Below, in pieces: positions 23,917 through 27,460 of a stretch of DNA of 47,140 nt. The stretch lies in sequence record DRR723986_21860. The stretch is one strand, 5' to 3'. Each line of letters opens with the position of its first letter. Position 1 is the stretch's first letter. Under the pieces are notes generated by a model, which saw only the letters and a list, made by a program, of their open reading frames with translations, had not been told where the DNA came from and did no database searches. The translations under genes and the position numbers were made by a program.

Positions 23917-25086
23917 TTACAGCGTACCTCTTTTCGCTTGTTCTCTTTCTATTGATTCAAACAATGCTTTAAAGTTACCAGCTCCAAAACCACGTGCTCC
24001 CATTCTTTGAATAATTTCAAAAAATAATGTTGGTCTATCTTCAACCGGTTTGGTAAAAATTTGAAGTAAATATCCTTCTTCATCCGCGTCAATCATAATC
24101 CCAAGACTTTTCAAAGTCTCAATATCCTCTCTTAACTCATGGCTGTGTTCCTCTAATCTACCTGGAACTGCTCTGTAGTATTCTTCTGGCGGCGTTGATA
24201 AAAACTCAACTCCTCTTGAACGTAACTTTGAAACGGTATCAATAATATCGTCCGTAGCTACTGCAATGTGTTGTACCCCTGATCCTTCATAGAAATCTAA
24301 GTACTCTTCAATTTGTGACTTTTTCTTTCCTTCTGCCGGTTCGTTGATAGGGAATTTAATTCTACCATTGCCGTTACTCATTACCTTACTCATAAGGGCC
24401 GAATACTCGGTATGGATTTGCTTATCGTCAAAAGATAAAAAGTTTACAAACCCCATTACATCTTCATACCATTTTACCCAAGTATTCATTTCGTTCCAAC
24501 CGACATTTCCAACCATATGGTCAATAAACTTTAGGCCAACAGGTTCAGGATTGTAATCTGACTCCCATTTTTCATAACCTGGCAGAAAAGTCCCTTTGTA
24601 ATTTTTACGCTCCACAAACATATGCACGGTTTCTCCATATGTGTAAATTCCAGCACGAACGACTTCACCAAACTCGTCAGTTTCAACAGTTGGTTCCATG
24701 TAAGATTTTGCTCCTCTTTTTGTTGTTTCTTCCCAAGATTTTCTAGCGTCATCAACCCATAGAGCCGTTACTTTTACACCATCACCATGTTTTACAATGT
24801 GGTCATTTATTGGTGATTTGGAATTTAATGGAGTTGTTAGTACGATTCTGATTTTGTCTTGTTTTAATACATAAGACGCATACTCTGAACAACCAGTCTC
24901 TAATCCTTTATAAGCAAAAGATTGAAAACCAAAAGCTGTTTTATAAAAGTGAGCAGCTTGTTTTGCATTTCCTACATAAAATTCTACATAGTCAGTTCCT
25001 AATAATGGCAAGAAATCTTGCGCATCTTCAAATATTTTTTCCAATCCGTAATCTACCGATTTAAGATCTTTCTTTGTATCACTCAT
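23917..25086 (-). CDS. hppD: 4-hydroxyphenylpyruvate dioxygenase
   Basis: DHMVGNV, KFPINEP, SQIEEYL, GVQHIA, LLQIFT, FFEIIQR.G..GFGAGNFKALFESIE. Confidence 0.97.
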   Translation of the reverse strand: MSDTKKDLKSVDYGLEKIFEDAQDFLPLLGTDYVEFYVGNAKQAAHFYKTAFGFQSFAYKGLETGCSEYASYVLKQDKIRIVLTTPLNSKSPINDHIVKHGDGVKVTALWVDDARKSWEETTKRGAKSYMEPTVETDEFGEVVRAGIYTYGETVHMFVERKNYKGTFLPGYEKWESDYNPEPVGLKFIDHMVGNVGWNEMNTWVKWYEDVMGFVNFLSFDDKQIHTEYSALMSKVMSNGNGRIKFPINEPAEGKKKSQIEEYLDFYEGSGVQHIAVATDDIIDTVSKLRSRGVEFLSTPPEEYYRAVPGRLEEHSHELREDIETLKSLGIMIDADEEGYLLQIFTKPVEDRPTLFFEIIQRMGARGFGAGNFKALFESIEREQAKRGTL

Positions 25087-25107: not shown

Positions 25108-26265
25108 TTAATGAATCCACGATTTATAATAACCTTCTTGCTCAATGTTCATGGCTGCCTCGGTCAACTGTAGAGGCTTAAAAGTATCAACCATTACAGC
25201 TAATTCTAACGTTTCTTTTTTTCCGATACTCCCTTCGTAGGTTCCAGGATGAGGGCCATGTGGTATTCCTCCAGGATGCAGGGTAATTTGACCTTTTTCC
25301 ACGTTATTTCTGCTCATGAAGTCGCCATCAACATAATATAACACTTCATCAGAGTCAATGTTAGAATGATTGTAAGGTGCCGGGATTGCCTCAGGATGAT
25401 AATCATATAACCTCGGCACAAACGAGCAAATTACAAAAGCTGGAGTTTCAAAAGTTTGATGAACTGGAGGTGGTTGATGTACTCGACCAGTAATTGGTTC
25501 AAAATCATGAATTGAGAAGGCATATGGATAATTGAACCCATCCCATCCCACTACATCAAAAGGATGAGATGCATAAGTGTAATCGTATAAAACATCCTCC
25601 TTTTTAATCATGATTTTAAATTCACCTTTTTCATCAAAACATTCAAGCTGTTCAGGAACACGTAAATCTCTCTCGCAAAATGGTGAATGTTCAAGTAACT
25701 GGCCGAACCAATTTCGATATCGCTTAGGTGTATAAATCGGGTGTGTGGATTCAACAATAAATAATTTGTTGTCTTCATCATCAAAGTGAAGCTGGTAAAT
25801 CATTCCACGAGGGATTACCAAATAATCTCCATAACTGAATGGGATATTTCCTAACTGTGTTTTAAGTGTTCCATTTCCTTTATGAATAAAAATAACTTCG
25901 TCCGCATCCGTATTCTTATAAAAGTAATCAGTCATTGATTTTTTAGGCGCGGAGAGCACAATTTTACAATCTGAATTAACAAGAACTGGCACACGACTCT
26001 CTAAGAAATCGTCAGCTGGCTTTACTGCGAATCCTGAAAAACTTCTTGATTGCAAACTTTTTTCATGCGCAATTTTCGGAGCAACATCTTTAGATCCGTT
26101 AACAGCTAATACTTGGGTTGGCGGATAATTATGATATAATAATGACGACATTCCGTCAAAGCCTATAGTCCCAAATAATTGTTCGTGGTATAAGCTGCCG
26201 TCTTCTTTTTTAAATACTGTATGTCTTTTGTGGGGAATATTTCCCAATTTATGATATCTAGGCAT
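25108..26265 (-). CDS. hmgA: Homogentisate 1,2-dioxygenase
   Basis: HPFDVVGWDG, HQPPPVH, PYNHSNIDSDE, HPGGIPHGP, AVMVDT; adjacent to hppD. Confidence 0.93.
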   Translation of the reverse strand: MPRYHKLGNIPHKRHTVFKKEDGSLYHEQLFGTIGFDGMSSLLYHNYPPTQVLAVNGSKDVAPKIAHEKSLQSRSFSGFAVKPADDFLESRVPVLVNSDCKIVLSAPKKSMTDYFYKNTDADEVIFIHKGNGTLKTQLGNIPFSYGDYLVIPRGMIYQLHFDDEDNKLFIVESTHPIYTPKRYRNWFGQLLEHSPFCERDLRVPEQLECFDEKGEFKIMIKKEDVLYDYTYASHPFDVVGWDGFNYPYAFSIHDFEPITGRVHQPPPVHQTFETPAFVICSFVPRLYDYHPEAIPAPYNHSNIDSDEVLYYVDGDFMSRNNVEKGQITLHPGGIPHGPHPGTYEGSIGKKETLELAVMVDTFKPLQLTEAAMNIEQEGYYKSWIH

Positions 26266-26313
26266 AATTTAAATGTGTTGATGAATAAATTCGATTTTAA
26301 TGTTCGAATTCGC

Positions 26314-26379
26314 TCACTCTGGGTTCCTTTTGATAAGAAACTTAAGCAATATCAATAAGTAATCGAAAGTCATAGACAT
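26314..26379 (-). CDS. Putative leader peptide (uORF) MSMTFDYLLILLKFLIKRNPE upstream of hmgA
   Basis: ATG at 26377-26379 with A at -3; TGA at 26314-26316; lies between the TATCTTTG promoter element and hmgA. Translation is inferred, not shown. Confidence 0.5.
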   Translation of the reverse strand: MSMTFDYLLILLKFLIKRNPE

Positions 26380-26403
26380 AATATCGCTAAATATGCTTTA
26401 AAA

Positions 26404-26411
26404 CAAAGATA
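26404..26411 (-). promoter_or_regulatory. Sigma70 -7 element (TATCTTTG) for the leader-hmgA-hppD transcript
   Basis: Matches TAnnTTTG; 24 nt upstream of the uORF ATG and 138 nt upstream of the hmgA ATG. Confidence 0.65.
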
Positions 26412-26527
26412 AGGAAACAATCGAATTTTTTTACTGACAGAAATCATAGTGCTATGAAATAAAATTTATTTTTGTTCACCTTTCTCAAATTAAACACATT
26501 TAGTTTGAGTACTCAAAAATCTGACAA

Positions 26528-27460
26528 ATGAAGAAAATATTAGTAGTGGGCTCATCAGGGCAAATCGGTACTGAGTTAGTACTTGAACTTAGAAATAGAT
26601 TTGGAACTCAAAACGTAGTCGCTTCTGATATTCGAAAACCTGAATCACTTCCTGAAGGACCCTTTGAAGAATTAGATATTATGAATGCGGAAGCCTTGTC
26701 TGCAGTAGTTTCAAAACACGGCATTAATGAGGTTTATCTGTTGGCCGCACTGTTATCCGCTACAGCTGAAAAGAATCCAGAATTTGCATGGAAACTGAAT
26801 ATGGAAGGTTTATTTAATGTGTTGAATTTGGCTAAGGATAAAGTAATTAAAAAGGTTTTTTGGCCCAGTTCAATTGCTGTTTTCGGTCCAACAACTCCCC
26901 GTGTTAATACGCCACAATTTACGGTAATGGAACCATCTACAGTTTATGGTATAAGTAAGTTAGCTGGTGAGAGATGGTGTGAGTATTATGCCAAGCAATA
27001 TGGAGTAGATGTGCGCAGTATCAGGTATCCAGGATTAATTTCTTACACATCATTACCGGGAGGAGGAACAACTGATTATGCCGTAGACATTTTCTATTCG
27101 GCAAAGAAAAAAGAGAAATTCGCATGTTTTCTTAAAGAAGATACACCATTACCGATGATGTACATGGAAGATGCTATTCGCGCTACAATTGATATTATGG
27201 AGGCTCCAGAAGAGCAGATTAAAATTAAATCCTCTTATAACCTTGCTGGAATTTCATTTACTCCTGAAGAGATCTATAATGAAGTTAGAAAGTTATCACC
27301 GGATTTTGAAATTGAATATAAACCTGATTTTAGACAGGCGATTGCTGACTCTTGGCCTGGAAGTATTGATGATTCTAGAGCTCAAGAAGATTGGGGCTGG
27401 AAATCGAGGTATAATTTGTCAGATTTGGCACAGATTATGTTTAACAATGTCCAAGTTTAA
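26528..27460 (+). CDS. L-threonine 3-dehydrogenase, extended SDR/GalE-like type
   Basis: GSSGQIG, LAALLSA..E, PSSIAVFG, YGISK, RYPGLIS...PGGGTTDYA, RQAIADSWP. Confidence 0.88.
   Translation: MKKILVVGSSGQIGTELVLELRNRFGTQNVVASDIRKPESLPEGPFEELDIMNAEALSAVVSKHGINEVYLLAALLSATAEKNPEFAWKLNMEGLFNVLNLAKDKVIKKVFWPSSIAVFGPTTPRVNTPQFTVMEPSTVYGISKLAGERWCEYYAKQYGVDVRSIRYPGLISYTSLPGGGTTDYAVDIFYSAKKKEKFACFLKEDTPLPMMYMEDAIRATIDIMEAPEEQIKIKSSYNLAGISFTPEEIYNEVRKLSPDFEIEYKPDFRQAIADSWPGSIDDSRAQEDWGWKSRYNLSDLAQIMFNNVQV

Follow-up and report, generated by a model that had tools for sequence, protein, structure and literature searches.

The short open reading frame (ORF) that lies ahead of the homogentisate-1,2-dioxygenase-like gene hmgA in the DNA stretch DRR723986_21860 raises the question of whether it encodes a peptide at all and, if it does, whether this peptide controls the hmgA-hppD operon of tyrosine and phenylalanine breakdown. 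The stretch, here called the window at its full length of 47,140 nucleotides (nt), carries this ORF on the minus strand between a promoter element and hmgA, and an earlier note, made from the sequence alone, had suggested a leader peptide that arrests its own ribosome in response to an amino acid or a catabolite, as do TnaC and SpeFL. Comparison of related loci indicates that the leader peptide of hmgA-hppD is real, widespread and apparently unannotated, and that it is outside every described family. As to its function, the ORF at 26379-26314 may encode a leader peptide that regulates the hmgA-hppD messenger RNA (mRNA) in cis and arrests at termination, a reading to which somewhat more than even chances are given here.

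The leader ORF and its conservation

The following elements of the window make up the leader and its promoter:

26404..26411, minus strand: -7 promoter element TATCTTTG, Bacteroidota type, from reading of the sequence
26314..26379, minus strand: leader ORF MSMTFDYLLILLKFLIKRNPE, 21 codons and TGA, from reading of the sequence and orthologous ORFs in relatives
26314..26331, minus strand: C-terminal block Lys-Arg-Asn-Pro-Glu-stop, invariant; putative place of stalling, where the A site would contain the stop codon

The ORF starts with an ATG at 26379 and ends with a TGA at 26316-26314, and a second in-frame ATG at 26373 is an alternative start. The layout described in the earlier note is correct in all coordinates, with TATCTTTG at 26411-26404 followed by 24 nt and the ATG at 26379, and with the hmgA ATG at 26265, 48 nt past the leader stop; also the A at nucleotide -3 of the leader ORF is present in the window.

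It is the pattern of change among related loci that speaks for a translated peptide. By an arithmetic estimate, a length of 260 nt should contain the word Pro-Glu-stop about 0.02 times, far less often than it is seen, namely in 58 of 139 hmgA upstream regions, in all of which the preceding residues are K/I, R/K and N/D/K, and the reading frame is kept in 58/58 loci having the ORF. For the codon analysis, 57 non-redundant leaders were selected only by Pro-Glu-stop. Counted back from the stop, position -4 is Arg in 55 of these 57 leaders, encoded by all six codons of both families (AGA 24, AGG 8, CGC 8, CGT 6, CGA 5, CGG 4), position -5 is Lys in 54, and position -3 is Asn or Asp in 56 (N 50, D 6). 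Toward the N-terminus follow Ile, Leu or Val at -6 (48/57), Leu at -7 with five codons (39/57), Phe or Tyr at -8 (40/57; F 28, Y 12), Lys at -9 (46/57), and, 16 residues before the last Glu, Trp or Phe at -17 (44/57; W 30, F 14). At codons whose first and second positions have an entropy near 0, that of the third position is 0.9-1.9 bits, and right after the stop the entropy of all positions rises to about 1.8-1.9 bits, which means that the conservation ends at the stop. The alignment anchored at the stop is free of gaps over the last 17 residues. The same result is obtained from the 139 regions without any pre-selection, where K-R-[N/D]-x-x-stop has P-E in between in 54/54 cases and, conversely, K-R-[N/D]-P-E is followed by a stop in 54/54. 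The length of the peptides is confined as well, with 63 of 117 non-redundant leaders encoding 21 amino acids (aa), 16 encoding 18 aa, 11 encoding 20 aa, and 9 each encoding 19 and 22 aa.

Judged by these substitutions, the leader ORF is a conserved coding sequence under selection at the amino-acid level, including the exact place of termination. The earlier note had expected of a genuine leader that its ORF would be conserved in amino acids with synonymous changes, and this is what is found across families. The focus of the conservation on the C-terminal ...L-I-K-R-N-P-E-stop fits a stalling at the Pro-Glu-stop end, which was one of the two stall sites considered in that note; the other one, at the Phe-Asp-Tyr codons, is not borne out, as only the aromatic position (W/F) is kept and the Tyr is not conserved.

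The leader was found in many, by no means all, hmgA loci. In a sample of relatives, hmgA loci from 41 related genomes gave 30 loci with 400 nt upstream each, and 22 of these 30 have the leader ORF, 42-97 nt before hmgA and ending with K/I-R/N-N/D/K-P-E-stop. It was also present in 4/29 further class-level loci and in 32/80 named loci, the carriers of the latter being Crocinitomicaceae, which are the window's nearest named relatives, and Flavobacterium, Tenacibaculum, Bizionia, Myroides, Paenimyroides, Kordia, Winogradskyella, Olleya, Tamlana and others. In the window's order, the motif is found in 89 of 401 genomes as compared to about 8 for the reversed pattern (count from table), and it occurs clade-wise, in 6/6 genomes of the window's genus, in 7/7 and 6/6 of two other genera, and in only 6/60 and 2/22 of two more. 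The distribution is thus wide but patchy, and many lineages have clearly either lost the leader or never acquired it. Altogether it is present in at least well over a hundred named species, and variant peptide ends were not found in the loci that have no ORF.

Where the leader occurs, it is bound to hmgA. The word KR[ND]PE-TGA is found exactly once per genome, at hmgA, in 5/5 carriers (reversed control 0), and it is absent from 5/5 whole genomes with a leaderless hmgA (Allomuricauda, two Flagellimonas, Zobellia and Galbibacter), in which there is one match with TGG, a non-stop codon, at the end of the word. In a scan of one genome per species for the longer word [L/F]-I-K-R-N-P-E-stop, 74 of the 80 loci listed had hmgA following at 45-242 nt, three of the remaining six were cut by the contig or locus end, and the other three resemble chance C-termini. 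Among further loci from two scans, 149 of the 155 motif matches listed lie at most 300 nt upstream of hmgA (45-300 nt).

Five loci of the Allomuricauda, Flagellimonas and Croceivirga type (L097, L125, L128, L130, L133) have the gene order reversed, with hmgA directly after hppD. In three of the five (L097, L125, L130), whole genomes were searched and the leader motif was not found. Another short 'peptide' upstream of hmgA, MKGFP.WEAFF in Eudoraea-like loci (L101, L103, L108, L119, L121, L131), was rejected, as it represents the GC-rich terminator hairpin and T-run of the upstream gene.

Arrest at termination as the proposed function

The leader does not belong to any family that could be found. 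Rfam, searched with the window leader at E up to 10, gave no family and four noise matches, Pfam and NCBIfam at E up to 10 gave 0 families for six peptide variants from the window and its relatives, the PDB has no matching chain, and none of five peptide variants has an exact entry in a collection of 15 billion proteins. As the ORF is missing from the queried protein collection and from the family libraries, the regulation of hmgA/hppD is currently read without the leader. A search of the published literature for hmgA/hppD leaders, Bacteroidota arrest peptides and KRNPE, most subscription journals being outside its coverage, found no description, in agreement with the earlier note, which knew of no such system for these genes. 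The terms 'hmgA', 'homogentisate' and 'uORF' do not occur in the main text of the study of Baez et al. 2019 (PMC6847099), according to which Bacteroidota initiate without Shine-Dalgarno sequences.

Two traits of arrest peptides are found in the hmgA leader: the short ORF lies in the same leader 5' of the gene that would be regulated, and the conservation at the peptide level is strongest beside the proposed stall site. By kind, the hmgA leader may thus belong with the sensory and regulatory arrest peptides, an assignment that we regard as slightly more probable than its contrary. The likeness to TnaC lies in a short leader ORF ahead of an operon for the breakdown of aromatic amino acids and, as proposed for the hmgA leader, in an arrest that depends on the peptide sequence and sets in when the stop codon occupies the A site. 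TnaC has a Pro near its C-terminus and, further back, a conserved Trp that is 12 residues from the end. In contrast to TnaC with its Pro-stop, the hmgA leader ends with Pro-Glu-stop and has its Trp/Phe 16 residues from the end, no sequence relationship was detected (0 Pfam or NCBIfam families at E up to 10), and the downstream genes are hmgA-like and hppD, not tryptophanase; moreover, the hmgA leader uses three stop codons, its spacer of 42-242 nt has no clear Rho loading site, and its hosts do not use Shine-Dalgarno initiation. SpeFL, the ornithine-sensing, Rho-dependent leader of speF in proteobacteria, can be regarded as analogous in that a metabolite-sensing leader blocks release at the stop and thereby turns on a catabolic or decarboxylase operon, but SpeFL is longer (34 aa) and unrelated in sequence.

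The introduction of PMC11890864 states that TnaC arrests at termination only at high tryptophan and thereby controls tryptophanase expression, that SpeFL is among the arrest peptides whose structures revealed metabolite or antibiotic sensing together with release-factor inhibition, and that PepNL arrests at UGA without an inducer. PepNL and NanCL of Escherichia coli, which are comparable to the hmgA leader as proposed here, are very short peptides of upstream ORFs (14 aa) that arrest at the stop codon, with the release factor kept from the catalytic centre (PMC11890864). PepNL differs in that it is inducer-free, tied to UGA and release factor 2 (RF2), and relieved by Trp-tRNA readthrough, whereas the hmgA leader has three stops and no sequence likeness to it. 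The attenuators pheL, trpL and hisL have in common with the hmgA leader a small ORF with RNA structure behind it and the link to amino-acid metabolism genes, but they have regulatory codon runs, little peptide constraint and biosynthetic operons, whereas the hmgA leader has an invariant end and a catabolic operon. The fungal arginine attenuator peptide and other peptides of eukaryotic upstream ORFs, with about 20-25 aa and a stall at their own stop with a free amino acid, are an analogy only, as they depend on scanning and have no homology to the hmgA leader.

As the anatomy matches that of leader peptides arresting at their own stop codon, a cis-acting arrest peptide is proposed. A peptide of 18-22 aa fits within the exit tunnel, and the whole leader peptide would be inside the tunnel when the stop codon reaches the A site, where it would hinder its own release, probably only with a small molecule of the pathway bound. 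By analogy, the signal would most likely be L-tyrosine or L-phenylalanine, with 4-hydroxyphenylpyruvate or homogentisate as alternatives. An arrest that is specific for RF2 and UGA is ruled out: TGA, TAA and TAG are all used, and because of this a mechanism tied to one release factor is excluded.

The coupling of such an arrest to hmgA-hppD expression is the least certain step, and the region that would have to mediate it has two elements in the window:

26281..26317, minus strand: predicted stem-loop, minimum free energy -10.1 kcal/mol, containing the stop; the final base of the Glu codon is its first
26266..26280, minus strand: hmgA translation initiation region, unstructured, A/U-rich and G-poor

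The stem-loop has an outer stem GUGAG/UUCAU and an inner stem GAAUUCGA/UCGAAUUU, and the box TTATTCAT in its 3' arm (26288-26281) recurs in near relatives. The window spacer is more stably folded than 100 dinucleotide shuffles (z = -3.2), and its stop region is paired to 0.81 versus 0.54 in the shuffles. Other spacers in the window's genus have z = -3.7, -4.2, -4.2, -0.2, -1.3, -1.1, -2.1, -1.8 and -3.6, so that z is below -2 in 6/10 genus-level spacers including the window; their stem sequences are wholly different, and the 3' arms of these genus stems end in a TTATTCAT-like box that is able to pair with GA(A/G)-UGA. Over all 57 spacers, mean z is -1.1 and 15/57 are below -2, with a Wilcoxon p of 1e-6 that is overstated, as the loci are related. 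A stalled ribosome would cover the stop codon together with ~10 nt beyond it, in the window the 5' arm of the stem-loop, and it is proposed that the stem-loop could not form because the ribosome sits on this arm. The first choice for a coupling would then be a relief of premature transcription termination that depends either on a hairpin or, as at tnaC and speFL, on Rho, the second a stabilization of the mRNA, and the third an unmasking of the hmgA start, which is disfavoured by the folding tests. The transcriptional coupling, in which the stall would keep a terminator-like or pause hairpin from folding or Rho from gaining access as at tnaC, is possible, on thin support.

A number of points weigh against a regulatory arrest peptide or against one of these couplings. 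In many related genomes hmgA does without the leader, the choice of stop codon varies (TGA 78, TAA 36 and TAG 3 of 117 leaders), and an A at nucleotide -3 of the ORF is found in only 58/116. Downstream of the stop, the clades have no conserved structure in common: RNAalifold gave no consensus structure for 18 near relatives, because the hairpins are too different to be aligned, and the long spacers of Flavobacteriaceae show no preference for pairing of the stop region. With regard to termination, a canonical intrinsic terminator was not found in the window leader 26266-26411, a hairpin with a T-rich tail is present in only 30/117 spacers versus 45/585 shuffles, and the C/G ratio of the spacers (median 1.4, C > G in 73%) is not a clear sign of a Rho loading site, nor does it speak against Rho. 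Start-site unmasking of the erm/secM type was rejected as a general mechanism, since a mask for the stalled ribosome gains +0.04 versus +0.02 in shuffles (p = 0.31); full-leader folds of the window with the footprint masked changed the openness of the hmgA start region from 0.60 to 0.59, and about nine long-spacer loci do gain 0.13-0.43 on masking. The hmgA initiation region is in any case more open than in shuffles (0.64 versus 0.58 unpaired). Among the 117 leaders, G is nearly absent from -20 to -1 of hmgA, and A is found at -3 in 84 and at -13, -12 and -11 in 87, 85 and 83, respectively; A-rich, G-poor and open start regions have been linked to efficient initiation in this phylum (Baez et al., PMC6847099).

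In its most far-reaching form, the proposal would be that the hmgA leader is the first metabolite-sensing arrest peptide of Bacteroidota and a new family (...W/F-x15-P-E-stop with a K-R-N-P-E end) that captures L-tyrosine or an intermediate of the homogentisate pathway in the tunnel, blocks both release factors, switches on tyrosine catabolism, and is leaderless in many Flavobacteriaceae, all of which taken together is tentative and rather doubtful. To our knowledge, only a handful of metabolite-sensing nascent peptides are known, TnaC and SpeFL in bacteria, and each of them has taught something on the exit tunnel and peptide release. The hmgA leader would be a candidate that is unrelated in sequence to TnaC and SpeFL and that belongs to a different pathway, that of homogentisate, in a phylum with unusual translation initiation. 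The hmgA and hppD genes are linked to the formation of the pigment pyomelanin in other bacteria. Flavobacterium johnsoniae is genetically tractable and ribosome profiling of it has been published; many of its congeners carry the leader, while the species itself is not among the matches listed.

Other explanations for the peptide

The alternative that survives best is a small protein acting in trans once released, for example an amphipathic peptide that binds or tunes HmgA or HppD or acts at the membrane, and that would merely share the operon's transcript. This is regarded as unlikely, though it is to be taken seriously. Conservation at the amino-acid level would suit any functional peptide, the core L-L-x-L-L-K-F-L-I-K-R could form an amphipathic helix, and the co-transcription with the enzymes is conserved. 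However, the leader ORF is seen nowhere but in the 5' leader of hmgA and is absent genome-wide where hmgA follows hppD or is leaderless, its conservation climbs up to the last residue and the stop while the N-terminus varies freely, and a structured spacer always follows. The hydrophobic run is too short and broken by Lys, thus not a membrane helix, and there is no relative in Pfam, NCBIfam or the PDB.

Somewhat less probable still is an arrest or pause peptide without any sensor, which would report translation capacity, release-factor activity or transcription-translation coupling in a PepNL-like manner, or serve ribosome loading or the protection of the mRNA 5' end. Its anatomy would be the same as that of a sensing arrest peptide, and an inducer-free arrest at a stop codon has its precedent in PepNL (PMC11890864). 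Many of the ORFs in Flavobacteriaceae apparently start at most 3 nt from the mRNA 5' end, which a parked ribosome could shield. A general translation signal would hardly account for the strict tie to one catabolic operon, though, and the conserved aromatic and acidic residues 15-16 from the end suggest a sensor-like second contact, which is a weak argument.

A classical attenuation, in which the leader would read charged tRNA for Phe or Tyr and alternative hairpins would decide on termination, is very improbable. It would account for a short leader ORF followed by a hairpin and for conserved aromatic codons at -8 and -17, but it does not fit: runs of Phe or Tyr codons are absent, the residues that stay constant are instead K, R, N, P and E, and the logic would be inverted for a catabolic operon. 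In addition, a terminator/antiterminator pair was not found in the consensus fold of near relatives and in the terminator scan of the window, and a sensing of codon supply needs neither a specific peptide end nor a specific stop position. A chance ORF, which the earlier note had still allowed for, or an RNA or DNA motif with an incidental frame can practically be dismissed. Short ORFs are common in AT-rich leaders and the -7 word occurs at chance frequency in the window, but a conserved peptide with drifting codons (six for Arg, third positions free), a frame kept in 58/58 loci, an invariant stop position with conservation lost one base later, and nothing above four noise matches in Rfam at E up to 10 contradict it.

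Promoter, spacers, upstream DNA and operon genes

The element TATCTTTG fits the sigma-A -7 consensus TAnnTTTG (revised TAHHTTTG; PMC6847099). In the AT-rich window, TAnnTTTG has 61 matches versus 57.8 expected, and 35/100 shuffles reach 61, which is not above chance; the TATCTTTG box is credible because its position ahead of the short ORF is kept in relatives, not because of word frequency. The earlier note had taken the long distance to hmgA as anomalous, as most TAnnTTTG matches would lie within about 30 nt of their start codon. Among 22 matches at most 200 nt upstream of the ATG of ORFs of at least 120 aa, this holds for only about half (11/22), while the gap of 138 nt at hmgA is indeed the second largest of the 22. 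Most loci that bear the ORF have a TAnnTTTG or GAnnTTTG box 5' of its ATG, with the ORF invariably placed between promoter box and hmgA, and in most relatives' loci there is no further box between the leader ORF and hmgA; the only recognisable promoter is upstream of the leader ORF. Loci without the leader ORF in the class-level sample mostly have the -7 box 22-30 nt from the hmgA ATG, which is an ordinary short leader.

According to section 14 of Baez et al. 2019 (PMC6847099), the spacing from the -7 box to the transcription start is 4-5 nt. With this spacing, the transcription start in the window would be near 26399-26398 and the 5' untranslated region about 19-20 nt long. Metatranscriptome contigs (one run, assembled) span hppD and hmgA to 26295 and none covers 26296-26511, but contigs cannot reveal RNA ends, and the gap is uninformative.

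Two layouts of the promoter can be distinguished. The first one is that of the window's group, in which 15-30 nt separate the end of the -7 box from the leader ATG (24 nt in the window). The second is found in 64 of the 117 leaders, mainly in Flavobacteriaceae, where the box is mostly GATATTTG, with a G in place of the nearly invariant T at -12, and ends 4-7 nt before the ATG, from which one would infer that the leader ORF is itself translated from a leaderless or nearly leaderless mRNA:

loci L094, L100, L110, L122, L137, L143 and L148-L225: GATATTTG-type -7-like boxes of Flavobacteriaceae leaders

The spacers between leader stop and hmgA are 42-242 nt long (median 69 nt) and A/U-rich, and in one clade they have an order of their own. 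In the Flavobacterium johnsoniae-like clade, of which 50 of 73 alignable spacers were used for an alignment (e.g. L148:2082-2208), a GAATTG/CAATTC helix encloses a hairpin and is followed by AAATTTT and then by two direct repeats AATTATCTAATT. The helix is invariant in this clade, and the enclosed hairpin covaries, with double changes in 5/10 pairs, 33 cells, and a score that is reached by 0/500 shuffles. The AATTATCTAATT repeats are invariant as well and stand just before the hmgA ATG; being conserved beyond what a hairpin would call for, they may therefore be a protein-binding site.

Upstream of the promoter, a palindrome suggests a second level of control:

26435..26446, minus strand: palindrome TGATTTCTGTCA (TGA-N6-TCA), ~30 nt upstream of the -7 box

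Its centre is ~42 nt upstream of the putative transcription start, and in 16/22 cases the centre of TGA-N6-TCA is 28-31 nt ahead of the -7 box. The motif is found in 23/58 hmgA upstream regions with the leader ORF and in 32/81 without it, as compared to about 2-3 in shuffles. TGA-N6-TCA is taken here to be a putative Crp/Fnr-type site by its likeness to that consensus, and TGATTTCTGTCA looks like a candidate activator site of this type in a class II position. Such a Crp/Fnr-like site would probably add a separate layer of transcriptional control. At the same distance, TGA-N6-TCA also stands upstream of hmgA in many Bacteroidia, whether or not these have the leader ORF.

In the window's genus (L002-L008, L026, L030, L068), the palindrome has upstream of it a conserved A/T block, CAAAAATA...ATTTTATTT (26448-26475, minus strand). 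This block is part of a region of 262 nt that is shared by the hmgA side and a divergent gene of the NAD-dependent epimerase/dehydratase family (26528-27460, plus strand), to whose promoter the block may belong:

26467-26474, plus strand: TATTTTTG, in the promoter of the NAD-dependent epimerase/dehydratase-family gene

The operon itself consists, in the order of transcription, of these two genes:

25108..26265, minus strand: hmgA-like gene, 385 aa, short homogentisate-1,2-dioxygenase-like cupin with a partial match to Pfam HgmA_N
23917..25086, minus strand: hppD, 4-hydroxyphenylpyruvate dioxygenase, second gene of the operon, identified by TIGR01263 and Pfam Glyoxalase domains

The hmgA-like protein scores 65.3 bits against TIGR01015, the curated cut-off of which is 510.75, and thus does not reach the equivalog score. 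The name hmgA is used as a working name because the family match is distant and partial and the gene forms an operon with a full-length hppD, and this operon also suggests homogentisate as the substrate. HppD scores 443.9 bits against TIGR01263 (cut-off 277) and is full-length.

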